A DNA stretch of 12,766 nt from a virus (Duplodnaviria > Heunggongvirae > Uroviricota > Caudoviricetes): the IMG/VR virus record IMGVR_UViG_3300007747_000033, one strand, 5' to 3'. Shown here piece by piece: positions 1-12,766 of this stretch. Position 1 is the first letter of the stretch. Each line of letters starts with the position of its first letter. Position numbers and translations under genes: made by a program. The notes beneath the pieces are model-generated. The model did no database searches, had not been told where the DNA came from, and saw only the letters and a list, made by a program, of their open reading frames with translations.

Positions 1-36
1 ACGGACTTCAGGGGAAAAACGAGTATTTTTAGTCAT
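1..36 (-). CDS. IS3-family transposase OrfA, first 12 codons only (runs off the window)
   Basis: rc of 1-36 = ATG ACT AAA AAT ACT CGT TTT TCC CCT GAA GTC CGT = MTKNTRFSPEVR; preceded on that strand by AGAGGTAAACAGG (SD-like). Confidence 0.6.
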   Translation of the reverse strand, partial: MTKNTRFSPEVR

Positions 37-90
37 CCTGTTTACCTCTTTCTCAGGAAGTTTAGTCTCCAGGATTCCCGGGGCGGTTCA
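1..90 (-). mobile_element. Terminal 90 bp of an IS3-family insertion sequence (left end with start of orfA); the element body lies beyond the left window edge
   Basis: Positions 2-90 are the exact reverse complement of 12678-12766 (checked base by base). The arm ends in TGAACCGCCCC (TG terminus typical of IS3 family) and carries an outward-reading ATG (rc of 34-36) opening MTKNTRFSPEVR, which I recognise as an IS3-family OrfA N-terminus. Exact IS name (IS629/IS1203-like?) not verifiable here. Confidence 0.75.
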
Positions 91-273
91 GTGTTTAATT
101 TCAGCAGAATTGCGGACTATTACGCTCACGCCCCCTCTGAAATTCAGTGTTTTTTCGAGGAGTCGGCGCTGGTGATCATTGATTATCAGCAGGCTATTGA
201 AAATGGATTTGTCCGGATGACGCAGCGCATGGTGGAGATCATGCATGGTGGTGAGGAGGAGGAATATGCGTGA
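91..273 (+). pseudogene. Possible 3' remnant of a gene truncated by the IS insertion; unknown product with acidic C-terminus (GGEEEEYA)
   Basis: The reading frame is open from position 1 through the IS end to the stop at 271-273; the first start-like codon (GTG 91) is the first codon after the IS boundary. No recognisable motif. Confidence 0.2.
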
Positions 274-1198
274 TGATTTTTGCGCCTTTATTCTGACTCA
301 CGGGCGACCGGACAAAGTTCTGACTTACCGGACGTTGCGTCGTGCTGGCTATACCGGGAAAATTTTTATCGTTGTTGATGATGAAGATAAGACACGGCAT
401 CAGTACATGGCTGAATTTGGGGAACAGGTGCTGGTGTTTTCCAAAGCCGATATCGCCAGTCGTTTTGACGAAGCCGATAATTTCTGTGACCGCCGCTCAA
501 TTTTTTACGCCCGTAATGCCTGTTTCGACCTGGCAAAACTGGTCGGGTGTAAATACTTCATTCAGCTCGATGATGATTATCACGAGTTCCAGTTTCGGGT
601 GGATCGCAACTATGACCAGGCCTATTTTCCGATAAGGAAACTGGATGCGATCCTTTCTGAAATGCTGGCGTACTACGAATCAATACCTGCTCTTTCCATC
701 GCTATGTCGCAGGGCGGGGATTTTCTTGGTGACAATGGCGGCCATGCTTCGTGGGTGAAACGCAAGGCAATGAACAGCTTTATCTGTTCGGTTGAACGAC
801 CGTTCTCATTCATGGGGCGCATTAACGAGGATGTGAATACGTACACGAATCTCGGTCGCTGTGGTGAATTGTTTATGACGATCGGTGCTGTCCAGTTAGG
901 GCAGAAACAGACGCAGAAAAACAGCGGCGGAATGACCGAGCTGTATCTGGATTCCGGAACCTACGTTAAAAGTTTTTACTCCGTCATGTATGCGCCGTCG
1001 TGCGTAAAAATCTCACTGATGGGTGCCAGCCATAAACGCATTCACCATCAGGTCACCTGGAACAACGCTGCAGTAAAAATCCTTCACGAAAAATACAGGA
1101 AGAAGACACCCTGCATATCAATGGGGGTGACAAATGATTCCGTATTCGAAAGTCGAGTCTCTGGCAGCGTGCCGGATGACTGCACAACAAATCGCTGA
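266..1198 (+). CDS. Hypothetical phage protein, putative GT-A-fold nucleotide-sugar transferase (DxD-type)
   Basis: ORF 245..1198 in the track; preferred start ATG 266 just downstream of the GAGGAGGAGG run (253-262) (ATG 245 is an alternative). Linear motif order typical of GT-A glycosyltransferases: AFILTHGRP strand, FIVVDDED about 25 residues later, then hydrophobic strand plus DxD (YFIQLDDDY) about 95 residues in. Motif-pattern call only. Confidence 0.5.
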   Translation: MRDDFCAFILTHGRPDKVLTYRTLRRAGYTGKIFIVVDDEDKTRHQYMAEFGEQVLVFSKADIASRFDEADNFCDRRSIFYARNACFDLAKLVGCKYFIQLDDDYHEFQFRVDRNYDQAYFPIRKLDAILSEMLAYYESIPALSIAMSQGGDFLGDNGGHASWVKRKAMNSFICSVERPFSFMGRINEDVNTYTNLGRCGELFMTIGAVQLGQKQTQKNSGGMTELYLDSGTYVKSFYSVMYAPSCVKISLMGASHKRIHHQVTWNNAAVKILHEKYRKKTPCISMGVTNDSVFESRVSGSVPDDCTTNR

Positions 1199-1385
1199 CG
1201 TTCTGGATGTTGATCTGAACCGACTGAAAGAAAATCGGGAAGCAATGACAGATTTTTATGCGGCCATCCGTAAGGGCAGAGCGAAAGGTGAAGCCGAGTT
1301 ACGAGCGGCATTGTTTAAGCTTGCCAGAAAAGGGGATGCCTTTGCTCTGCGCGAACTACTCAGGGTGGATAAAAATCAGGACTAA
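1134..1385 (+). CDS. Small HTH-like protein, possibly a DNA-packaging or small-terminase-associated domain
   Basis: ORF in track; ATG 1134 preceded by GGGGGTGA (ATG 1176 is an alternative). Overlaps the upstream gene by 65 nt in another frame. Contains TAQQIADVLDVD and GRAKGEAELRAALFKLARKGD, which I associate (from memory, unverified) with phage small-terminase N-terminal domains. Confidence 0.45.
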   Translation: MIPYSKVESLAACRMTAQQIADVLDVDLNRLKENREAMTDFYAAIRKGRAKGEAELRAALFKLARKGDAFALRELLRVDKNQD

Positions 1386-1388
1386 CTG

Positions 1389-2483
1389 ATGAGCAGACCG
1401 GACTGGGGGGCGTTGCAGCAGGAGTATATTGCTGAATACACCCGCTCCGGTATATCTCCGGTGGCATGGTGTGAAGCAAGGGGACTGAATTACGCAACAG
1501 CCCGTCGTTACATCAAAAAAACTCCGAAAAATGCGCAGACAGAAATGTGCAAAACTGCGCAAAAAAGTGCGCAGAAAAAATCTGCGCAGACTGCACAAAA
1601 GCGGAACGAAAAATCTCAGGAAAAAAAGCCAGTATTCGATGCGGGCCTGAATGAGGGCGACGCGGAGGAATTTTCGTTCTGTCCCGATGAATTCGGCATT
1701 TCTGACCAGCAGGCTAAGTTTGCGATGCTTGTTGCTCAGGGTAAAAAGCCGACAGAGGCGTACCGACTAGCCGGTTATGAGGGGCAAGGTGCGACAGCTA
1801 ATAGCAACGCCAGTCGTATGCTTAGAAATGCCAGGGTTTTTCGCGCTATCAGCTACTTCCGCAATCAGTACCAGAAACGCTATACCGCAGACCTGGATTT
1901 ACTAGTGAGTCAGTTGATGGCCATTGTCCTGGCCGACCCCAATCAGCTTGCACAATTTCGCCGTGTTAACTGCCGTTATTGCTGGGGCGAGAATCATCTC
2001 TACCAGTGGCGCGATATAGCAGAATTCGACAAGGCAGCGGCGCAGGCTTCCAGAGATGGCAAACCCGAACCGGAATATGGAGGCCTCGGCTTTGTTGATA
2101 ACGCCATACCCAATCCGGACTGCCCGAAGTGCTGCGGTGAGGGAACGGGACAGCTTTATATGGCTGATACCACTCTGCTTGATGGGGATGCGCGGCAATT
2201 ATATGCAGGGGCAAAATTCGGAAAATTCGGCGTTGAGATCCTGCTGGAGGATAAGGCTGCCGCCCGGCGTGAATTGTTGCGTTTGCTTTCTGCTGGCGGG
2301 GCTTTATGTGCAGATAAGCGGCTACAGGAACTGGAAATTGAACGGCGCAGAATGGAAAACCAGAAGCTGCGCAAAGAGATCGAAACGGTGGAAGATAATG
2401 AACATCCCCAGCCTGTGGCGATCAATATTAATGTGGTTGATGCCAGAGTAAGGAGTGATGAAGATGATCTCTCCGACGCTTAA
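1389..2483 (+). CDS. Terminase small subunit (Terminase_2-like core) with N-terminal extension, low-complexity linker and Cys-rich insert
   Basis: ATG 1389 after AGGA (1378-1381). Core region ISDQQAKFAMLVAQGKKPTEAYRLAGYEGQGATANSNASRMLRNARVFRAI fits the small-terminase HTH consensus (L..KQ..F..EY....NAT.AA..AGYS...A.....LL..P.V...I). Lies immediately upstream of the large terminase. Also has CRYC...CPKCC and a C-terminal coiled-coil-like region. Confidence 0.7.
   Translation: MSRPDWGALQQEYIAEYTRSGISPVAWCEARGLNYATARRYIKKTPKNAQTEMCKTAQKSAQKKSAQTAQKRNEKSQEKKPVFDAGLNEGDAEEFSFCPDEFGISDQQAKFAMLVAQGKKPTEAYRLAGYEGQGATANSNASRMLRNARVFRAISYFRNQYQKRYTADLDLLVSQLMAIVLADPNQLAQFRRVNCRYCWGENHLYQWRDIAEFDKAAAQASRDGKPEPEYGGLGFVDNAIPNPDCPKCCGEGTGQLYMADTTLLDGDARQLYAGAKFGKFGVEILLEDKAAARRELLRLLSAGGALCADKRLQELEIERRRMENQKLRKEIETVEDNEHPQPVAININVVDARVRSDEDDLSDA
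1532..1597. repeat. Cluster of six TG(C/T)(G/A)CA hexamers (four exact TGCGCA) at 9-15 bp spacing inside the small-terminase gene
   Basis: TGCGCA at 1532, 1556, 1568, 1583; TGTGCA at 1546; TGCACA at 1592; separated by A-tracts. Coincides with the (S/T)AQK peptide repeats of the encoded linker. Confidence 0.6.
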
Positions 2484-3765
2484 TGTGCCTCAGGCGCGAT
2501 TTCTTTCAATGCCCCATAAATTTAAAGCCTATATTGCTGGTTTTGGCTCGGGCAAAACATGGGTTGGGTGTGGCGGCATATGCAAGGGGATTTGGGAGCA
2601 TCCAGGTATAAATCAGGGATATTTTGCGCCAACGTATCCCCAAATTCGCGATATTTTTTACCCTACAGTGGAAGAAGTTGCTGCTGACTGGGGATTGAAC
2701 GTAAAAATTAATGAGGGAAATAAAGAGGTTCACTTTTATTACGGACGCCAGTATCGGGGAACCACTATCTGCAGATCGATGGAGAAGCCACAAACGATCG
2801 TCGGTTTCAAAATTGGTAATGCGTTGGTGGATGAACTGGACATTTTGCCGAAGGAAAAAGCCAGAACGGCGTGGCGCAAGATAATTGCACGTATGCGTTA
2901 TAAGATTGATGGACTTCGCAACGGTATTGACGTTACAACCACGCCGGAAGGATTCAAATTTGTCTACGAGCAGTTTGTTAAAGCCGTGCGTGAAAAAACA
3001 GAGCTGGCCTCACTGTATGGTCTGGTGCAGGCATCTACTTTCGATAATGAAAAGAACCTGCCAGCAGATTACATTCCTTCGCTTCTTGAATCATACCCTC
3101 CAGAGCTGATTAAAGCCTATCTTCGAGGACAGTTTACTAACCTGACAAGTGGTACTGTTTACCATCAGTTTGACCGGAAACTGAATAATTGCGAAGAAGT
3201 GGAGCAGCCAGGGGAGCCGATTTATATTGGGATGGATTTTAACGTTGGAAAGATGGCGGGAATCGTCCATGTGCTGCGTTTGGGGCTTCCATGTGCGGTA
3301 ACTGAAATCATCAATGCCTACGATACGCCGGATATGATCCGCATCATTAAAGAACGCTTCTGGCTGTATGATGGGAATGATTACCGGAAAGTGAGGGAAA
3401 TTTATATTTATCCAGATGCTTCCGGGGATTCCAGAAAATCAAGTAACGCAAGTACGACGGATATAGCCCAGCTTAAGCAGGCTGGTTTTAACGTTGTGGT
3501 GAACAGCTCGAACCCGCCAGTAAAAGATCGCGTTAACTCAATGAATGCAATGTTCTGCAATGCCAATGGTGAGCGTCGCTATAAAGTTAATGTGAAGCGT
3601 TGCCCGTTATATGCCGAATCTCTGGAGCAACAGGTCTGGGATGAGAAGGGGGAGCCTGATAAAAAATCTGGCAATGATCACCCGAATGATGCCGGAGGTT
3701 ATTTCATCGTTAAGCAATTCCCTATTGTCAAACCGACCGGAAGAGTCACATCACTTCGGATTTAA
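2464..3765 (+). CDS. Terminase large subunit
   Basis: ORF 2455..3765; preferred start ATG 2464, 8 nt after AGGAG (2451-2455); GTG 2455 and ATG 2458 are alternatives. Walker A-like AGFGSGKT near the N-terminus, and C-terminal acidic nuclease-type motifs (IGMDFN, YPDASG, HPNDAGGYF). Overlaps the terS stop. Confidence 0.85.
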   Translation: MISPTLNVPQARFLSMPHKFKAYIAGFGSGKTWVGCGGICKGIWEHPGINQGYFAPTYPQIRDIFYPTVEEVAADWGLNVKINEGNKEVHFYYGRQYRGTTICRSMEKPQTIVGFKIGNALVDELDILPKEKARTAWRKIIARMRYKIDGLRNGIDVTTTPEGFKFVYEQFVKAVREKTELASLYGLVQASTFDNEKNLPADYIPSLLESYPPELIKAYLRGQFTNLTSGTVYHQFDRKLNNCEEVEQPGEPIYIGMDFNVGKMAGIVHVLRLGLPCAVTEIINAYDTPDMIRIIKERFWLYDGNDYRKVREIYIYPDASGDSRKSSNASTTDIAQLKQAGFNVVVNSSNPPVKDRVNSMNAMFCNANGERRYKVNVKRCPLYAESLEQQVWDEKGEPDKKSGNDHPNDAGGYFIVKQFPIVKPTGRVTSLRI

Positions 3766-3767
3766 TT

Positions 3768-5174
3768 ATGGCTGATATATCAACACCCAACCTCGACTAT
3801 AACGATATGCTGGAGGCGTGGGATATTAACGACGCACTGATGGGCGGTACGCTTGAAATGCGCAGGCAGGGGGAAAATTATCTCCCAAAATGGCCTAACG
3901 AAGATGAAGACGCTTATAAAAAACGCCTGTCTGTGGCTACGCTACTTCCTGTGTATGAAGAAAGCATCAAGCAAAATATTGGGCGCATATTTGCAGAGCC
4001 GACAGTATTGAGTGAGGAAACGCCGGCAAAAATCAGGGAATATGCAGAAAATATCGACATGGAGGGGAGCCGACTGGATGTGTGGGCGCAGCAATTTTTC
4101 AGCCTCGCATTTCAGTATGGTGTGGCACATGCGCTGGTGGACTATCCACGAACGGATATGAAAGAGATTCGGACAAAAGCCGATGAAAACGCGGCCGGTG
4201 GTCGTCCGTACGTTACGATGCTGAATCCACGCCAGGTTATTGGATGGAAATCGAAAGTTGAAAAAGGGAAAGTTGTTCTCACTGATTTGCGTATAAAAGA
4301 GGTCATCATTATTGATGGTGATGATTTCGGGCAGAAGAAGGTGGAGCAGATCCGCCATATTATGCCCCGTCGAGTTGAAATTTATCGACGTAGCGAAGGC
4401 ACTAATGGCGAATCTGTCTGGACGCTTCATGAGTCATGGAATACCAGCCGTGATGATATTCCTCTGGTAACACTGTACACGAAGAAAACAGGATTTATGC
4501 GTGGTACACCGCCATTGCTTAATCTTGGCTTGCTGAATATCAAGCACTGGCAAAGCCAGAGCGAGCAGGACAATATTCTTCATGTTGCCCGCGTTCCATT
4601 GCTGGTGGCCTACGGGCTGGACAGGAATGAAGAACTGACGGTTGGTGCATCCACCGCTACGATTTTTGAGGACAGAACAAAAAATGGCCTCGAATATGTT
4701 GAACATAGTGGCGCAGCGATAGAATCTGGCGAAACATCACTTGAGAAGCTGGAAAATCAGATGCGTCATGCCGGCGCTAAACTTCTGCGTGCTGAAAATA
4801 CATCCACCAAATCTGTTGATCAGACTAATGAAGAGCGAATGCAGGAAAACTCGCCGCTTTATACAATGGCGAACTCCCTCGAAGATGCCCTCGATAATAT
4901 TCTCCAGATAATGGCGGAATGGATCGGAGAGAGTTGCGGTGGCAATGTGGATGTGCGCACTGAACTGGATGTATCTGCCCAGGTGTTTGACTCATCCTCC
5001 GCGCTGGCTGTTCAGTCATTGCGTCAGGGCGGTGATATACGTCAGATTGATGCGGTTCGGGTGTTGCAGGCGTTGAAATTTATCGATCAGGATTCCCGTC
5101 CAGAGGAAGTGATCGATGAATTAAAAAATCAGAGTGTAATGCTGATGGAAATCAATGATGCAAACCGTGAATGA
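3768..5174 (+). CDS. Portal protein
   Basis: 468-aa ORF starting 2 nt after the terL stop (translational coupling). Position between large terminase and Mu-F-like minor head protein, and size, are typical of a portal. Assigned by synteny. Confidence 0.65.
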   Translation: MADISTPNLDYNDMLEAWDINDALMGGTLEMRRQGENYLPKWPNEDEDAYKKRLSVATLLPVYEESIKQNIGRIFAEPTVLSEETPAKIREYAENIDMEGSRLDVWAQQFFSLAFQYGVAHALVDYPRTDMKEIRTKADENAAGGRPYVTMLNPRQVIGWKSKVEKGKVVLTDLRIKEVIIIDGDDFGQKKVEQIRHIMPRRVEIYRRSEGTNGESVWTLHESWNTSRDDIPLVTLYTKKTGFMRGTPPLLNLGLLNIKHWQSQSEQDNILHVARVPLLVAYGLDRNEELTVGASTATIFEDRTKNGLEYVEHSGAAIESGETSLEKLENQMRHAGAKLLRAENTSTKSVDQTNEERMQENSPLYTMANSLEDALDNILQIMAEWIGESCGGNVDVRTELDVSAQVFDSSSALAVQSLRQGGDIRQIDAVRVLQALKFIDQDSRPEEVIDELKNQSVMLMEINDANRE

Positions 5175-6270
5175 ACGGCTGCGTGATGAATCAATTGCTC
5201 ATGCAGTCTGGATATCCCGCTATAGCACTGGCGTGGCTGCCAGAATGGTGAAAATACTGAATGACAGCGATGCGGAACTTACTGCTCGCCTGCTGATAGC
5301 ACTGGACAGCCTCGATCCAGGTAGTTTTACCGTTAAGCGCCTGGAGTCACTTCTGGCGAGCGTCAGAGAGGTTAACCGCACTGCTATTAACAGCATGTTT
5401 ACCAGTCTCTCCGGAGAGCTGAACGAGCTGGCAATTTATGAGGCTGGTTATCAGTTAAGTCTGTTTGATTCTATGCTACCTGATTTTGTTGCTGATGTTC
5501 ACCCTCTGGTTGGTATCTCTCCTGATGCACTTTATGCCGCTGCAATGGCGCGACCATTCCAGGGACGACTGCTCAGTGAGTGGGCCTCAGATCTTGAAGC
5601 GGATCGGCTCAGACGCATAACAAATACAGTGCGTCAGGGTTTTTTGCTGGGGGATACCAATGAGCAGATCGCAAGAAAAATTCGGGGACATGTCAGTAAG
5701 GGATTTCAGGATGGTGCATTGCAGATGAGCCGGGCTAATGCGGCCAGCATTGCAAAAACAGCGGTTGGACATCTTGCTGCTACTGCCCGTGAGAGTTTTG
5801 CCAGCGCGAATAATGATTTGATTAAGGGTAAGCAATGGTTATCAACGCTTGATAATCGTACTACGCCACAATGTCGAATCAGGGATCGCCTCAAATATAC
5901 GCTGAATAATAAACCTGTAGGTCACAGCGTGCCTTATTTGCAGGGGCCGGGAAAAATTCATTTCTGCTGCCGCTCAACGGAAACGTTCATTCTGAAATCA
6001 GCGAAGGAACTGGGTATTGATGTTCGCGATATTTCCCCGGCTGAGCGGGCCAGCATGGATGGCGTGGTGGCCGGAGATACAACCTACAGGGAATGGTTTT
6101 TGCGTCAGCCTTACACCAGACAAAAACAGATTGTGGGGGAAACCCGAGCAAAGCTGATTCGGGATGGTGGTATGTCGCCAGATGAATTTTACACCGATAA
6201 AGGCGAATGGCTGACGCTGAAGCAGCTCCGTGAGCGTGATGCACAGGTATTCAGAAAAGCAGGGATTTAA
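5155..6270 (+). CDS. Minor head / head morphogenesis protein (Phage Mu F / SPP1 gp7-like)
   Basis: 371-aa ORF overlapping the portal stop by 20 nt. Contains WLSTLDNRTTPQCR, resembling the conserved D.R..P.C signature of the Mu-F/gp7 family. Canonical position after the portal. Confidence 0.65.
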   Translation: MMQTVNERLRDESIAHAVWISRYSTGVAARMVKILNDSDAELTARLLIALDSLDPGSFTVKRLESLLASVREVNRTAINSMFTSLSGELNELAIYEAGYQLSLFDSMLPDFVADVHPLVGISPDALYAAAMARPFQGRLLSEWASDLEADRLRRITNTVRQGFLLGDTNEQIARKIRGHVSKGFQDGALQMSRANAASIAKTAVGHLAATARESFASANNDLIKGKQWLSTLDNRTTPQCRIRDRLKYTLNNKPVGHSVPYLQGPGKIHFCCRSTETFILKSAKELGIDVRDISPAERASMDGVVAGDTTYREWFLRQPYTRQKQIVGETRAKLIRDGGMSPDEFYTDKGEWLTLKQLRERDAQVFRKAGI

Positions 6271-6290
6271 ATAAATCATTTATTACAACA

Positions 6291-6314
6291 GGCTACCTTC
6301 GGGTGGCCTTTTTT
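6291..6314 (+). terminator. Rho-independent terminator after the minor head protein gene
   Basis: GGCTACC (6291-6297), TTCG loop, GGTGGCC (6302-6308): 7-bp stem with one G-U pair, followed by TTTTTT (6309-6314). Lies 21 nt after the stop at 6270. Confidence 0.7.
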
Positions 6315-6374
6315 ATTGCTGCGATCCGGATGGTGAGCAGCGTAACTGTCGGAAGACTTAAACCAGGTACTAAT

Positions 6375-7139
6375 ATGAAACTGAAAACGGTCGAGATTAA
6401 CGGAAAACAATACGCAGAAATTGATACTGCTGGCCTGCCAGTTTATGTGCACGACGATGGTAAAGAAATTGGCTTCGATGCACCGCTGGCGACAAAAAAA
6501 ATTACAGAGCTTAATGGCGAGGCAAAAAATCATCGCCTGGCTAAAGAAGCTGCAGAGGAAAAACTGGCTAAGTTTGCCGCTATCGAAGACCCGAAGAAGG
6601 CGATCGAGGCACTGGAAATGCTGTCAAAAATCGACCAGAAAAAGCTGCTCGATGCGGGACAGGTTGACCAGGTTAAGGCAGAAATTACGAAAAATTTTCA
6701 GCAGCAATTAGATGAAGAAAAGCAACGCTCTCAGATGCTGGAGAAGCAGCTTTACGATTCTATGATTGGCGGTAGTTTTGCGGGTTCAAAATATATTGCC
6801 GATAAAATTGCGATCCCGGCAGATTTATTACAAGCCCGCTTCGGGCAGGCATTCAAAGTGGAAGAAGGGAGGATCGTTGCTTATGACGCTTCCGGCAACA
6901 AAATTTATTCCCGCGCGAAGCCTGGCGAACTGGCGCAGTTTGATGAGGCGCTGGAGTTCCTTGTCGAAAATTACCCTCAGAAAGACTACATCCTGAAAGC
7001 CAGTGGCAACAATGGCGGCGGCTCCCGTCCGACACAGCATGATATTGGTCAGAAAACGATGAAACGCTCTGCTTTTGATGCACTGGATGTTGCAGGTAAG
7101 CAAAACGCATTGAAAGACGGTATCACAATCGTTGATTAA
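6375..7139 (+). CDS. Scaffolding protein (putative)
   Basis: The ORF track starts at GTG 6303, but that lies inside the terminator; first plausible start is ATG 6375. Product is highly charged and helical (EAAEEKLAKFAAIEDPKKAIEALEMLSKIDQKKLL...) and sits immediately upstream of the major capsid gene. Confidence 0.55.
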   Translation: MKLKTVEINGKQYAEIDTAGLPVYVHDDGKEIGFDAPLATKKITELNGEAKNHRLAKEAAEEKLAKFAAIEDPKKAIEALEMLSKIDQKKLLDAGQVDQVKAEITKNFQQQLDEEKQRSQMLEKQLYDSMIGGSFAGSKYIADKIAIPADLLQARFGQAFKVEEGRIVAYDASGNKIYSRAKPGELAQFDEALEFLVENYPQKDYILKASGNNGGGSRPTQHDIGQKTMKRSAFDALDVAGKQNALKDGITIVD

Positions 7140-7237
7140 CACATTTGTCAGCTTCCGGATGGGAGCTGGTGTCAGGGCTGGATAGCTCATTACTCCATCT
7201 ATTCACAATTACGCAAATTTTTAAGGAATATTTAATT

Positions 7238-8377
7238 ATGGCTGGAAATACCCTGACCGGGTTGATCCCGACTATTTATACCGCCCTGGATGTTGTATCC
7301 CGTGAGCAGGTAGGTTTTATCCCTGCGGTAGCAAAAAACGCAAAAGCTGACGCCGCAGCAAAAGATCAGACGGTAACCGCGCCAGTTGCGCCTGAGGCGA
7401 AAACCGAAGATATCGTACCGGGGCCGTCAGCTCCGAATACCGGTGATCAAAATATTGGCACTGTTGATGTAAAAATTACTAAATCCAAAATGGCACCGGT
7501 TAAATGGAATGGTGAAGAACAACTGGCTCTTGGCCCTTCAGGGACTTACAACACCATTCTGGCTGATCAGTTCAAGCAGGCTTTTCGCGCCCTTGCAAAC
7601 GAGGTTGAGGCTGATCTTGGTGCGTTGTATTTCGGTGCTTCCCGCGCCGTGGGAACCGCAGGGACAACGCCGTTTGGTGTTAAAGATGATCTTTCTGATG
7701 CTGCTCTGGCTCGTCAGGTTCTGGAGGATAACGGCGCACCGACAACCGATCTGCAGATGGTGCTTGGCTCCACTGCCATTGCTAATTTGCGCGGAAAACA
7801 GTCTGTATTGTTTAAAGTGAATGAATCCGGCACTGAACAGCTACTGCGTGAGGGCGTGTTGGGGCGTCTGGAGGGATTCAATATTCACAGTTCGGCAGGT
7901 GTGAAACGAGCGCCAAAGGTTGCTGCAACTGGTTATCTCGTGAATGGAGAGAAAAAAGAAGGCGATGTTCTTATTTCCATTGATACTGGTTCGGGGTGTA
8001 TTTCTGCAGGTCAGATTGTTACGTTCGCTGGTGATCCGAATCAGTATGTTGTGGCAGCAGCGACCAGCAATCTGATTACTCTTGCAGCGCCCGGACTGCG
8101 TCAGGATCTGGCCGATGATACTGCCATCACAGTTGTTGGGGCCTTTACTGCAAATATGGCGTTTGATCGCAACGCGTTTCTGCTGGCATCCCGTACTCCG
8201 GCAATGCCGGAAGGTGGCGATAATGCTGATGATGTAATGAATGTTACGGACCCGATTTCAGGGATTACGTTCCAGATTGCACTGTATCGTCAGTATCGCC
8301 AGGTGCGCTATGAAGTTGGACTGGCATGGGGTGTTTCATCAGTGAAGCCGGCACATGGTTGTCTGATTCTTGGTTAA
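7238..8377 (+). CDS. Major capsid (coat) protein
   Basis: The ORF track opens at 7145; preferred start is ATG 7238, 10 nt after AAGGA (7223-7227). N-terminus MAGNTLTGLIPTIYTALDVVSREQVGFIP resembles coat proteins of the P22-coat-like family (from memory). Size ~380 aa; followed by a terminator. Confidence 0.75.
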   Translation: MAGNTLTGLIPTIYTALDVVSREQVGFIPAVAKNAKADAAAKDQTVTAPVAPEAKTEDIVPGPSAPNTGDQNIGTVDVKITKSKMAPVKWNGEEQLALGPSGTYNTILADQFKQAFRALANEVEADLGALYFGASRAVGTAGTTPFGVKDDLSDAALARQVLEDNGAPTTDLQMVLGSTAIANLRGKQSVLFKVNESGTEQLLREGVLGRLEGFNIHSSAGVKRAPKVAATGYLVNGEKKEGDVLISIDTGSGCISAGQIVTFAGDPNQYVVAAATSNLITLAAPGLRQDLADDTAITVVGAFTANMAFDRNAFLLASRTPAMPEGGDNADDVMNVTDPISGITFQIALYRQYRQVRYEVGLAWGVSSVKPAHGCLILG

Positions 8378-8387
8378 ACATTCAAAC

Positions 8388-8408
8388 GGGGCTTCGGCCC
8401 CATTTTTA
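8388..8408 (+). terminator. Rho-independent terminator after the major capsid gene
   Basis: GGGGC (8388-8392), TTCG loop, GCCCC (8397-8401), then ATTTTTA. Starts 11 nt after the capsid stop. Confidence 0.65.
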
Positions 8409-8419
8409 ATGGGGGGCAT

Positions 8420-8596
8420 ATGGCCGGATTAACTAAAGAGCAAAGAGCACAGCGTGAAGCCGCACAAAAAACGCAAATTGAGTTAGTGGTTATGGTGACC
8501 GATTATCAGATGTTTCCCGGCGCACCAACTATCGCTAATGTTCATCCTGATGAAGTTGACAACTGGAAGGCTATGGGCTGGAAAACTCAGGAGTAA
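8420..8596 (+). CDS. Small hypothetical protein (58 aa), not in the supplied ORF track
   Basis: ATG 8420 just after GGGGGG (8411-8416); translation MAGLTKEQRAQREAAQKTQIELVVMVTDYQMFPGAPTIANVHPDEVDNWKAMGWKTQE; stop TAA 8594-8596. Fills the capsid-connector gap exactly, with the next gene's SD (AGGAG 8588-8592) inside its 3' end. Confidence 0.45.
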   Translation: MAGLTKEQRAQREAAQKTQIELVVMVTDYQMFPGAPTIANVHPDEVDNWKAMGWKTQE

Positions 8597-8599
8597 CAC

Positions 8600-8995
8600 A
8601 TGATCACTTACGTGACCTGTGATGACGTTGATAATGCGTTTGGGAACGCCTGGACGAGTGAGAACGCTAAAAATAAAGCTGTTTTAATGGCTAATGCCTG
8701 GCTTAATGGCTTCAACCTGAAAATTAACCCATCCCGTATTCCGGAAGAGGTAAAACTTGCGGGAGCATATGCAGCCAGAATTGCCTCATTCGGTAAGTTG
8801 TTTCAGCAGAAAAATGATTCTGGCGTTGTTATCAGTAAAGCCGTGTCGGCTGACGGGGTCAGTGTATCGAAATCATTTTCTGAGTTGCCAGCAAACAGCA
8901 CTGCATTGCTTGAACCCGATTTACAGCTTGCGATAGCACTGCTGAAACCGTACGGACTTAGTCGCTCACAAGTCAGGGTTGTGAGGGGGGGATAA
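8600..8995 (+). CDS. Putative head-tail connector / adaptor protein (gp6-like)
   Basis: ATG 8600 after AGGAG. 131 aa, first gene after the capsid module. N-terminus (ITYVTCDDVDNAF...AVLMANAWL) resembles connector-protein N-termini. Assigned mainly by synteny. Confidence 0.45.
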   Translation: MITYVTCDDVDNAFGNAWTSENAKNKAVLMANAWLNGFNLKINPSRIPEEVKLAGAYAARIASFGKLFQQKNDSGVVISKAVSADGVSVSKSFSELPANSTALLEPDLQLAIALLKPYGLSRSQVRVVRGG

Positions 8996-9378
8996 TGGGG
9001 CTTCGTGAAGAGATTCAGTCAGAGGTTGCCGCTGCTTTTGATGAGGATTTAGCGGACGCCGTGAGTGATTTTTCTGGTTCTTACGTTACGCACCGGCACT
9101 GGGATCCTGTGACGGAAACTGGCGGCGAATCCACCGCAATCTATACCGGGCGAGGCGTGTTGACACGTTATAAGCTGGGCAGAATTGATGGGATTAATAT
9201 TTTGCATGGTGACCTTAAATTAACCGCTCTGGTATGCGAGGTTACGGATAAACCAGCTGTCGACCATATTATTGAGATTTATGATCCTGTATCAAGGCAG
9301 TTACAACGATACGAGGTAATTACAGCAAGTGTAGATCCTTCCGCATCAGTTTACTCTATCCAGTTAAGGAGAGCGTAA
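8995..9378 (+). CDS. Hypothetical phage structural protein (head completion / head-tail joining by position)
   Basis: ATG 8995 overlaps the upstream TAA by 1 nt (TAATG) and follows GAGGGGGGG. 127 aa; no recognisable motif. Confidence 0.5.
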   Translation: MGLREEIQSEVAAAFDEDLADAVSDFSGSYVTHRHWDPVTETGGESTAIYTGRGVLTRYKLGRIDGINILHGDLKLTALVCEVTDKPAVDHIIEIYDPVSRQLQRYEVITASVDPSASVYSIQLRRA

Positions 9379-9759
9379 ATGGCAAAGGCATGGGATATAG
9401 AACCGTCAATATTTGCCGGGATGATTGAGGAAGATGTAGGGCTGAAGATTCGCTACATCGCTATTCAGATTCTTACTGCTATTGATATTGCTGCTCCGGT
9501 TGATACCGGACGTTTCAGAAATAACAACCTGGTGTCGTTACAGCATCCCGATTTTGGTATATCTGATAACGTGGATCCGAACGGTACGATTGCTGTTCAG
9601 CGTGGGATCGGGGTTATTTCGAAAGCTGCAAATTACGGGGTTATTTATATCCAGAATAACCTTCCTTATGCAGAGGCTCTTGAAAACGGTCATTCACAAC
9701 AAGCGCCAACTGGCGTGTATGCCAACGCTTTTCATGGTGTTTTACAGGCTTACAAATGA
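9379..9759 (+). CDS. Head-tail joining / tail component protein, HK97 gp10-like
   Basis: ATG 9379 immediately after the upstream TAA, with AAGGAG at 9367-9372. Contains VDTGRFRNN, resembling the DTGxLRxS signature I associate with the HK97 gp10 family. Confidence 0.55.
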   Translation: MAKAWDIEPSIFAGMIEEDVGLKIRYIAIQILTAIDIAAPVDTGRFRNNNLVSLQHPDFGISDNVDPNGTIAVQRGIGVISKAANYGVIYIQNNLPYAEALENGHSQQAPTGVYANAFHGVLQAYK

Positions 9760-10148
9760 AGTTTACTGAAATCAGAAATACGGTTATTTCCAGAATGACG
9801 GCACAGACGATTATTGATGGAAAAGACGTATTGTATCCGAACGGGCCAACGTTCGATCCTTCCGGTAAGTTAATCTGGGCGCGGTTAAGTAATATTCCCG
9901 GGCAAGCTGGAGTTAATGAAATTGGCGCGGGGCCGGTTGTTTATCGCACGGGGATAATCATTATTCAGTTATTTGTCCCCGCAGGTTCTGGTTCAAAACT
10001 CATTACTGAGACAGCCGATAAATTGCGGGAACTGTTTGAGTTTCAGGATGACGATCGTCTCAGTTACCAGGCTGTTTCCTCAATAGCCGTCGGCGAAAAG
10101 AATGGCTGGTTCCAGCTTAATCTTCAAATTCCATATCGCGCGCTCTAG
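9756..10148 (+). CDS. Putative tail completion / tail terminator protein
   Basis: ATGA start-stop overlap with the upstream gene (9756-9759). 130 aa, immediately upstream of the major tail gene. Assigned by synteny. Confidence 0.5.
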   Translation: MKFTEIRNTVISRMTAQTIIDGKDVLYPNGPTFDPSGKLIWARLSNIPGQAGVNEIGAGPVVYRTGIIIIQLFVPAGSGSKLITETADKLRELFEFQDDDRLSYQAVSSIAVGEKNGWFQLNLQIPYRAL

Positions 10149-10174
10149 CGCAATTAATGACATAGGAGGCTCCT

Positions 10175-11137
10175 GTGAGTTCAGGTGCAAAGGTTATCTC
10201 GGCATTTATCCGGGAGACAGTTGCAGGCACTACGCCAGCAAGTGGTGACTGGAGTTTATTAAAACGCACAAGCTGGGGAGTAAAACCCACCCAGAATAAA
10301 GGCGAAAATAATGAGATTGGTGGCTCCCGGATGGCTCAGGGGGCGACGCCTGGCACTGTGGATGTCGGCGGTGATGTTGGTACCAAATTTCGCTGGGGTC
10401 AACATGATGATTTTCTTGCATCCTGTTTCGGCGCGGAATGGTCAGGCGATTCTCTGACAATGGGGAATGAGCGAATAACATTTTCTCTGGCGACCTATGC
10501 GTCCGATGTCGGAATTGCCTCTGTCGTCAGAGGAGCGCAGGTTGGCTCATGGAAAATGCAGATCCCTAACGACGGCGATATTACAGCGACCGTAACCTTT
10601 GCCGGGCTGGGCTGGGAATCAAAGGCCGATGATACGAATTTTATCAAAGGCGAACCTGTGGATAGTGCAGGAAAGTTACGCTATTCGTTTAAGGCGGTTT
10701 CAGCAGTAAGCCTGAATGGTGTTGCCGGAGGTAACGGTTTTTGTATCGACAGTTTTGATATTCAGTTCGATAACAAACTCCAGACACAGCGTTGTATCGG
10801 GACCGGCTCGCCTTATGCAGGAGCAAATATTCCGACTACTTTTACACCGTCCGGTACGGTGACGCTTTCATGGTCTAAAGCCGCGTGGGAAATCTGGAGT
10901 AAAACACTGACTGGAGAAACAGTTCCGTTCAGCTTCACGCTTTCGAATGGAGAGGGGGCATACACTTTCAGTTTCCCGAAGGTTCAGGTGTCAGGTGAAT
11001 GGCCTGATGGGGGTAATACTGACATTATCCAGGTTCAATTGAGCATTACCGCAGCAGATGAAGCACCTACGATAACCAGAAAAAAATGCTCCCCGACTGC
11101 CGTGATCGCAAAAGCCAGTGCTGATGCGATTAGTTGA
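10175..11137 (+). CDS. Major tail (tube) protein
   Basis: GTG 10175, 5 nt after AGGAGG (10164-10169). 320 aa, Gly/Thr/Ser-rich beta-type composition. Directly upstream of the chaperone/frameshift pair and tape-measure gene. No sheath gene present, so siphovirus-type. Confidence 0.6.
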   Translation: MSSGAKVISAFIRETVAGTTPASGDWSLLKRTSWGVKPTQNKGENNEIGGSRMAQGATPGTVDVGGDVGTKFRWGQHDDFLASCFGAEWSGDSLTMGNERITFSLATYASDVGIASVVRGAQVGSWKMQIPNDGDITATVTFAGLGWESKADDTNFIKGEPVDSAGKLRYSFKAVSAVSLNGVAGGNGFCIDSFDIQFDNKLQTQRCIGTGSPYAGANIPTTFTPSGTVTLSWSKAAWEIWSKTLTGETVPFSFTLSNGEGAYTFSFPKVQVSGEWPDGGNTDIIQVQLSITAADEAPTITRKKCSPTAVIAKASADAIS

Positions 11138-11149
11138 TTTTCCGTTATT

Positions 11150-11176
11150 CCCCCTGTGGTACTGCACTACAGGGGG
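11150..11176 (+). promoter_or_regulatory. Stable hairpin between major tail and chaperone genes, no U-tract
   Basis: CCCCCTGTGGT (11150-11160), ACTGC loop, ACTACAGGGGG (11166-11176): 11-bp stem with one G-U pair. Followed by ACGCATTGA, not a T-run, so not a canonical intrinsic terminator. Confidence 0.4.
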
Positions 11177-11185
11177 ACGCATTGA

Positions 11186-11647
11186 ATGAGGTTATGGATG
11201 TTTATTCTTAATCAGAAAATTATCATCGGTGGAGAACGCTGGTTTACGCCAATGAAGGACTTAAAACCTATAGACGGGTTAAAACTGTTGGTGGCAAGCA
11301 GCGATAACGATCAGTATCGCTCCCGTAATGCATTAATCCGTCGTCACATTGAGAAAATGGATGCCAGTTTGCACGTCGGAACGAAGGAGTTTGATATTTC
11401 AAAGGTTTCCGAGGTAGATTCTGTTGATGATTTACTCATTGATAATGCTGCTCGTTATCTGCTGAAAGACTGGAAAGGGGTTGGTGAACTGGTTAATGGT
11501 GCTGAGGTTGCACTGGAATATACGCCAGAACGAGGGATCGCGCTGCTTAAGCAGAATCCAGAGTTGTACTGGCAGATCCTTGCAGAAGCAGCCAGCATCG
11601 CCCAGGGTAAAGAGCAGCAGAAGCAGGATACGATAAAAAAGCCATAG
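11186..11647 (+). CDS. Tail assembly chaperone (lambda G-like)
   Basis: 153-aa ORF between major tail and tape-measure genes; ends 4 nt after an A AAA AAG slippery heptamer; -1 frame stays open for a further 104 codons. Confidence 0.6.
   Translation: MRLWMFILNQKIIIGGERWFTPMKDLKPIDGLKLLVASSDNDQYRSRNALIRRHIEKMDASLHVGTKEFDISKVSEVDSVDDLLIDNAARYLLKDWKGVGELVNGAEVALEYTPERGIALLKQNPELYWQILAEAASIAQGKEQQKQDTIKKP
11635..11641 (+). promoter_or_regulatory. Programmed -1 ribosomal frameshift slippery site A_AAA_AAG
   Basis: Zero-frame codons ATA AAA AAG (11633-11641) give the classic heptamer at 11635-11641, followed by CCA TAG. The -1 frame is open from 11611 to the stop at 11953-11955. Confidence 0.6.
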
Positions 11648-11955
11648 CCGCCCAGCGGTGGTTATCGGAGTTCGGGGGAGAAAGGGGGGAAAAGGCAAGA
11701 TGGAAGCGAGAAAAACTCAGGTTGCCACCGATACCGGAACCAGAAATAGACCCGGTGCTTAAGGAATTGTTGTACGCCTATTCGGTAATATCCCGTGCCC
11801 GACGTTATGCTGGAATGACCGGGGTGCCTTTGCCTTTATCTCTGACAGAGATAAATGAATATTTAGCCACTCATCCGGTATTGATTGAGCGCGATGAGTT
11901 TGAAGCAGTGATCTTTGCACTGGATGACCAGTATTTTCAGGAGCAGTGTGTGTAG
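11635..11955 (+). CDS. -1 frame extension of the tail assembly chaperone (lambda GT-like fusion, ~256 aa with the upstream ORF)
   Basis: Track ORF 11722..11955 (TTG start) is in the -1 frame relative to 11186..11647, and that frame has no stop back to 11611. Conserved G/GT arrangement upstream of tape-measure genes. Confidence 0.5.
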   Translation, partial: KKAIAAQRWLSEFGGERGEKARWKREKLRLPPIPEPEIDPVLKELLYAYSVISRARRYAGMTGVPLPLSLTEINEYLATHPVLIERDEFEAVIFALDDQYFQEQCV

Positions 11956-12078
11956 TTGTTAATTACGTACACTCTGTTACAGAGATGTGATGGTGTCTTT
12001 AATTAAATCGATGATGCTCCTGGAGAAAAGCATTGCGTGGCCTCGTAATCGCTATATCTACTATTATGTCGCCTGAAA

Positions 12079-12098
12079 CCCACTTCGGTGGGCTTTTT
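12079..12098 (+). terminator. Candidate rho-independent terminator upstream of the tape-measure gene
   Basis: CCCAC (12079-12083), TTCG loop, GTGGG (12088-12092), then CTTTTTGTTG. Short 5-bp stem, so probably weak or partial. Confidence 0.5.
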
Positions 12099-12118
12099 GT
12101 TGTCTGGAGTTTTAATAA

Positions 12119-12706
12119 ATGGCAGAGCAAACCTCGCGTCTCGCAATAATTATTGATAGCACTGGAGCAAAAAATAATGCTGACAATCTGACCTCCTCAT
12201 TAGTCAAAATGACGCAGGCCGGGGAAACTGCTGCAAATAGCGCAGGGAAAGTGACTAAGGCAACAGAAGATGAGAAGAACGCGCTCGCAAAATTAAAAGC
12301 AGCTATTGATCCAGTTGGTGCCGCAATTGATACTGTCGGTCGACGCTATTCTGAATTAAAGAAATTTTTCGATAAAGGGATTATTGATAAAGAAGAATAT
12401 GAATTTCTTGTCCGTAAACTTAATGAAACCACAGAGGAATTGAGCGGGGTTGCGCAAGCGCAGAGAGAAGCCGAGAAGGCCGGAAAACTTGCTGCCGCCC
12501 AGCAGGAAGCGCAGACTCAGGCCTTTCAAAGAATGCTGGACAAGATCGACCCTCTGGCTGCGGCGCTAAGAAATCTTGAACAACAGCAGGATGAACTTAA
12601 TGCTGCGTTTGCATCCGGGAAAATAAATGGTTCTCAGTTTGAGAATTATAGCCGAAAAATACAGGAAACACGGCGAGTGAACCGCCCCGGGAATCCTGGA
12701 GACTAA
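12119..12706 (+). CDS. Tail tape-measure protein, N-terminal fragment truncated by IS insertion (native sequence ends at 12677; last 9-10 codons and stop are IS-derived)
   Basis: ATG 12119 after GGAG. Product is helical, Ala/Glu/Lys/Gln-rich and coiled-coil-like, as in tape-measure N-termini, and sits directly downstream of the chaperone/frameshift pair. The ORF runs into the IS end at 12678 and stops inside it (…[11 protein letters not shown]). Confidence 0.55.
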
Positions 12707-12766
12707 ACTTCCTGAGAAAGAGGTAAACAGGATGACTAAAAATACTCGTTTTTCCCCTGAAGTCCG
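12678..12766 (+). mobile_element. Terminal 89 bp of an IS3-family insertion sequence (left end with start of orfA); the element continues beyond the right window edge
   Basis: Begins TGAACCGCCCCGGG; exact inverted copy of 2-90; contains AGAGGTAAACAGG followed by ATG at 12732. Confidence 0.75.
12732..12766 (+). CDS. IS3-family transposase OrfA, first 11 codons only (runs off the window)
   Basis: ATG ACT AAA AAT ACT CGT TTT TCC CCT GAA GTC = MTKNTRFSPEV. Confidence 0.6.
   Translation, partial: MTKNTRFSPEV

Follow-up and report, generated by a model that had tools for sequence, protein, structure and literature searches.

The stretch of DNA analysed here (the window; 12,766 nt, from a virus assigned to the Caudoviricetes) consists of a long run of phage genes, from the end of ynaK through the packaging and head genes to the start of the tape-measure gene, enclosed by two short arms that match the end of an insertion sequence (IS) (Table 1). 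Between the arms, window positions 91-12677 (12,587 bp) are 100% identical to, and collinear with, a prophage of E. coli AR_0067 (L001 6001-18587), and the identity extends to many other strains. The block is also identical to deposited phage records, for example Escherichia phage vB_EcoS-473R12, and 696 complete genomes contain at least 80% of the window. A scan of the window with Rfam gave no matches, and its composition profile is flat.

Table 1. Features of the window, with the evidence used for each assignment
Feature	Position	Strand	Evidence or remark
IS copy 1, left end (IRL, leader, first 11-12 orfA codons)	1..90	-	remainder off window
Inner GTG target duplication of IS copy 1	91..93		empty allele ...cacacg/gtgttt
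ynaK 3' remnant, codons 204-263	91..273	+	phrog_620 ParB-like, E=1e-90; full gene at L002 5392-6183
TAGT-like glycosyltransferase gene	266..1198	+	Pfam PF20691, E=1.2e-34; phrog_842, E=1.7e-103
Small terminase, large terminase, portal (DUF4055), Mu F-like minor head protein	within 1389..8377	+	Pfam
DUF6651 protein, P22-type major capsid protein	within 1389..8377	+	Pfam; RefSeq annotation of AR_0067
Head-tail connector, small ORFs, tail terminator, tail tube	within 8420..11955	+	AR_0067 annotation, Pfam/PHROG
YdaY-type tail assembly chaperone, small TAC-like ORF	within 8420..11955	+	AR_0067 annotation, Pfam/PHROG
Tape-measure gene, 5' part, 186/1077 codons	12119..12677	+	cut by IS copy 2; ORF enters IS, stop at 12706
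Inner GAG, presumed target duplication of IS copy 2	12675..12677		empty allele ...acggcgag/agctta
IS copy 2, left end, inverted relative to copy 1	12678..12766	+	match to full IS copies

The prophage block in its native context

In AR_0067 the block is uninterrupted, with the lysis genes, trkG, and ynaK on its left and the remainder of the tape-measure gene plus tail genes on its right. The gene order in relatives starts with antiterminator-region genes, holin, endolysin, Rz, trkG, ynaK (ParB/Srx), and a hypothetical gene, continues with the small and large terminase, portal, Mu F-like, DUF6651, and P22-type capsid genes, and ends with the connectors, tail terminator, tail tube, ydaY, tape measure, and minor tail proteins to J. 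From this collinearity and the markers trkG, ynaK, and ydaY, which are shared with the Rac prophage of E. coli K-12 and with intact relatives, the block is part of a common Rac-like lambdoid E. coli prophage. The lambdoid order (lysis, packaging, head, tail) is likewise that of intact Rac relatives such as vB_EcoS-473R12, whose DNA is identical over the whole block. Unlike Rac and its intact relatives, however, the prophage here is interrupted twice by an IS.

The initial annotation had described the IS copies as bracketing a phage module that lacks integrase, lysis, and distal tail genes. These genes are indeed absent from the window, but their absence is an effect of the breakpoints and not of the biology: they are missing because the sequence stops at the IS copies. 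Thus trkG and the truncated ynaK (ynaK') are present on a neighbouring contig of the sequencing run SRR7716745, and in relatives the lysis cassette lies directly upstream of trkG. Nor do the copies delimit a module, since both sit inside genes (ynaK and the tape-measure gene) of a collinear prophage.

The gene at 266-1198 is called a "hypothetical protein" in RefSeq relatives. It strongly matches the TET-associated glycosyltransferase family PF20691 and phrog_842, which is described as "beta-glucosyl-HMC-alpha-glucosyltransferase". Its first 8 nt are shared with the end of ynaK, and from this overlap the genes look translationally coupled. A gene for a TET/JBP dioxygenase is absent from the window and from the 6 kb upstream in relatives. 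It is possible that ynaK and the glycosyltransferase gene represent a DNA-modification pair, located in Rac-like prophages between the lysis cassette/trkG and the terminase; this candidate pair is disrupted by the left IS.

The terminal arms and the element they match

The arms at 2-90 and 12678-12766 are complementary at all 89 positions, as seen both by reading the two ends and with a repeat finder. The next-best inverted pair within the window spans 27 nt at 70% identity, so chance is excluded as the source of the arms; by our own estimate, 12.8 kb of random sequence would contain an inverted repeat of 89 nt without mismatch with an expectation of ~1e-46. On the left, the IS-derived part spans 1-90, and its base 1 has no partner because the window ends there. 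Both arms begin TGAACCGCCCCGGGAATCC, and in each of them an outward-reading frame, ATG ACT AAA AAT ACT CGT TTT TCC CCT GAA GTC, encodes MTKNTRFSPEV. The initial annotation had recognized each of these points: the exact reverse complementarity, the left IS end (TGAACC...) with its outward orfA start, and the need for two inverted copies, and all three hold. A single IS on a circular molecule can be rejected, because one copy cannot place the same end at both edges.

Its symmetric ends suggest that the window, itself a fragment, is most likely a complete short-read contig. If so, both arms represent one collapsed repeat node, their identity to each other is partly by construction, and this perfect identity carries no information about the remainder of either IS copy.

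A full element with a matching left end is present in E. coli WP4-W18-ESBL-09 (stretch L002). This copy is 1310 bp long (TGAACC...GGTTCA) and lies between the two halves of a 3-bp duplication, TAT; its annotation is that of an IS3-family transposase with programmed frameshift. The window arm agrees with it at 88 of 89 positions, and the first 90 nt contain 1 mismatch. Over its 1310 bp it is 97.6% identical to a copy in an O157-type genome that PGAP calls "IS3-like element IS1203", and the arm matches this same O157-type copy at 86 of 89 positions. The ends are those of the IS3 family, with TG... termini and shared terminal bases. A frameshifted orfA/orfB is seen by annotation in the full 1310-bp copies of WP4-W18-ESBL-09 and NCTC9699, the window itself holding 89-90 nt of each copy. 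Consequently both arms are assigned, from these matches, to the left end of a 1310-bp element that belongs to the IS629/IS1203 group of the IS3 family, and the full copies with matching ends bear out the family named in the initial annotation. IS629, IS1203, and IS3411 are near-identical 1310-bp isoforms, and the use of the name IS629 rests on the 97.6% identity to the PGAP "IS1203" copy together with this ISfinder synonymy.

With IS629, IS1203, and IS3411 of O157:H7, other E. coli, and Shigella, the element shares its length, TG...CA termini, orfA start, 3-bp duplications, high copy number per genome, and frequent insertion into prophage genes, as well as, in its full copies, the programmed-frameshift transposase. 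It differs from the O157 "IS1203" copy by about 2.4%. The 89-nt arm is present in 3553 of 5426 complete E. coli genomes, on chromosomes and plasmids, at a median of 3 and a maximum of 50 places per genome, and repetition on this scale causes short-read assemblies to break. IS629 is reported to be the most numerous IS of O157 genomes, with 17-21 copies in O157 strains, and to be often inserted in prophages, stx2::IS629 being one example (PMC7430833). A literature search for the inverted-repeat string and for the SRA run numbers gave no match.

Insertion sites in ynaK and the tape-measure gene

The left edge of the block falls exactly after ynaK codon 203 (...cac acg / gtg ttt). It was predicted beforehand that a gene interrupted at this point would encode a 204-residue protein, YnaK(1-204), with its stop provided by the TGA of the IS terminus, and exactly this protein exists in the sequence collection. 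Its gene is found in SRR7716745, on a 2477-bp trkG-ynaK' contig (Logan; L005) that ends in ...cacacgGTG/TGAACCGCCCCGGGTTTCCTGGAGAG, the right end of the IS (also read as ...cacacgGTG/TGAACCGCCCCGGGTTTCC); in this contig and in WP4-W18-ESBL-09 the IS right end reads TGAACCGCCCCGGGTTTCC on the complementary strand. GTG is therefore present on both sides of IS copy 1, and the left copy is a complete simple insertion with a 3-bp target duplication.

Within ynaK, contigs of four other assemblies (L004, L006, L007, and L008; one from NCBI, one ENA metagenome, and two from Logan) end at ...cacacgGTG or 1 base beyond it. More samples than the two described here may thus carry the ynaK::IS insertion, or some other repeat boundary at this position.

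The right edge lies 559 nt into the 1077-codon tape-measure gene (...ggcgag / agctta). The fusion ORF that runs from the tape-measure gene into the IS (12119-12706) specifies a 195-aa product. Two Logan assemblies that are independent of each other, SRR7716745 and SRR12001630, contain this product, and at this junction the contigs of both runs stop 29 nt into the IS. At this site GAG has been seen on the inner side; judging by copy 1 and by the TAT and GTC cases, it is the presumed target duplication of IS copy 2. The initial annotation had proposed a search for target duplications at the outer ends, and of the two copies the left one gave an answer, the GTG in SRR7716745, but for the right copy the outer junction (IS right end/GAG AGCTTACC..., expected as ...CCCGGGGCGGTTCA/GAGAGCTTACCGG) was not found through its predicted products. 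That search looked for exact matches to six proteins that the 3' fragment of the tape-measure gene was predicted to encode. One of the six, a TTG-start form of 869 aa, is present in the collection; it was rejected as a sign of the outer junction, since it stems from frameshifted tape-measure genes in unrelated samples. We infer that a complete right IS copy is followed by the rest of the tape-measure gene.

Could each junction derive from a separate cell or strain with a single insertion, or could the contig ends be chimeric? The window does end exactly within a repeat, which is typical of graph-based assemblies, and the identity of the arms is, as noted, by construction. However, both inner junctions are carried by the window on one contig, and two further independent assemblies reproduce junctions. 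In addition, at the ynaK site as well as at the tape-measure site, the SRR7716745 contigs pass without a branch from unique DNA into the IS, where they end after 28-29 nt. An empty allele at either site would have produced a branch at the junction, which makes it unlikely that occupied and empty alleles coexist in that sample. Such an artefact of assembly or population is therefore regarded as highly improbable.

Neither junction has an exact match in the 5426 complete E. coli genomes: the insertions at ynaK codon 204 and tape-measure codon 187 are absent from that set, and the full arrangement is seen in none of these closed genomes. The exact right junction gave 0 matches in viral contigs, and all four predicted junctions, searched as a degenerate pattern that had been validated on the window, gave 0 matches in metagenome contigs. 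The nearest insertion among the 5426 genomes is in the closed genome NCTC9699 (L015 3676-4985), about 75 bp further into the tape-measure gene. This independent event is likewise a simple insertion by a member of the IS629/IS1203 group, oriented as in the window; GTC is duplicated at the target, and the tape-measure gene resumes on the far side. Taken with the sites in the window and with a copy in the portal gene of WP4-W18-ESBL-09, it indicates that the Rac-like prophage family has been hit repeatedly by the IS629-group element.

Origin and orientation of the block

A DNA segment enclosed by the same IS in two inverted copies resembles Tn5 and Tn10, and it might be read as a composite transposon, or as a dedicated invertible switch, that moves or flips the packaging-head-tail module as a unit. 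Several observations stand against this. A 3-bp duplication that belongs to the left copy alone lies inside a native gene, the block is in its native prophage context rather than at a new target, and the IS copies cut through genes instead of flanking a functional unit. Furthermore, unlike in Tn5 and Tn10, each IS copy has, or would by analogy have, a separate duplication within the prophage, both of the ends that face outward are right ends, and there is no sign of movement as a unit: among the 5426 complete E. coli genomes, no IS-block-IS unit is found at an unrelated locus. A composite transposon is thus rejected on the basis of the GTG duplication of the left IS and the continuation of the ynaK frame on both sides of it. 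A segment of the Gin/Hin/Pin type is rejected as well, since no ORF of the block has a recombinase domain (no site-specific invertase gene is present) and the repeats are IS ends. Of all the readings weighed here, that of a composite or switch is the most improbable. Scarcely more credible is the general form of this idea, that the block flips actively, or forms a composite element with two IS right ends, and can invert or mobilise the packaging-head-proximal-tail module; if true, it would represent an IS-driven route for the exchange of structural modules between lambdoid prophages.

A milder alternative retains the same two IS copies and holds that the 12.6-kb block is already inverted relative to the prophage in the sequenced clone. 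This could have happened through RecA-dependent recombination between the inverted copies or through the arrival of the second copy by intramolecular, inversion-type transposition. Homologous recombination has a good substrate in two 1.3-kb repeats that are inverted and separated by 12.6 kb; the inversion that the initial annotation envisaged is therefore mechanistically sound, and a flip is possible. Moreover, the observed set of junctions is equally compatible with it. Crossing-over inside the IS regenerates two full copies, leaving all four IS-to-unique junctions unchanged, and an inversion-type intramolecular origin of the second copy leaves the junction sequences unchanged too. Since the four junctions are the same in either orientation, the window and short-read contigs are blind to orientation. 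For this reason the check that had been suggested, in which continuation of the tape-measure gene beyond the left copy would prove an inversion, gives no answer when it is made on junctions.

Positive support for an inversion is nevertheless lacking, and other considerations point the other way. Transposition of the IS3 family proceeds by a copy-out/paste-in pathway via a circle and yields simple insertions. Fixation of an inverted block would require an extra event. Finally, what appears to be a relative with a single insertion, SRR12001630, keeps the native orientation. Its contig (L013) is 15,065 bp long, which is the sum of 29, 12,587, and 2,449, and the 2,477 bp of the SRR7716745 trkG-ynaK' contig are the sum of 2,449 and 28. 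From this length arithmetic, SRR12001630 most likely carries the tape-measure insertion only, with the ynaK site intact and the block in native orientation. The strain would then likely be an evolutionary intermediate, which would make the ynaK insertion the later event. The single-insertion relative and the copy-out/paste-in mechanism together make it more likely that two simple insertions took place one after the other and that the block kept its native orientation, and a block that has already been inverted is considered unlikely.

The explanation that we hold with considerable confidence is that the window is a fragment of a Rac-like prophage with two independent IS629-group insertions in opposite orientations, delimited by a repeat-limited assembly. 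Two copies of the IS629/IS1203-group element would have inserted independently into the resident prophage, one in the ParB/Srx gene ynaK and the other in the tape-measure gene. Because the IS is multicopy in the genome, the assembly stops within it; on each side the assembler would have halted about one k-mer into the element, which accounts for the perfect inverted repeat of 89 nt at the ends of the window.

As a result of the insertions, the tape-measure protein breaks off at residue 186 of 1077 and YnaK at residue 204 of 263; from these truncations the prophage is very probably defective and unable to build tails. The case is thus a strain-specific pair of IS629-group insertions, of which the tape-measure truncation very probably inactivates a Rac-like prophage. 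A multicopy element of this group found twice in a common prophage, and seen via a repeat-limited assembly, is ordinary and already known, and inverted IS pairs are known substrates for inversion; neither a new mechanism nor a new element is involved. The case illustrates how multicopy IS elements shape contig ends, and insertion-site polymorphisms of this kind are usable as lineage markers.

Two further observations concern related prophages. In other strains (L009 9378-12610; L011), the tape-measure gene is split by a frameshift into ORFs of 211 aa and 869 aa, which is another route to defectiveness in this Rac-like family. In WP4-W18-ESBL-09, it is the portal gene that carries a copy of the IS629-group element.
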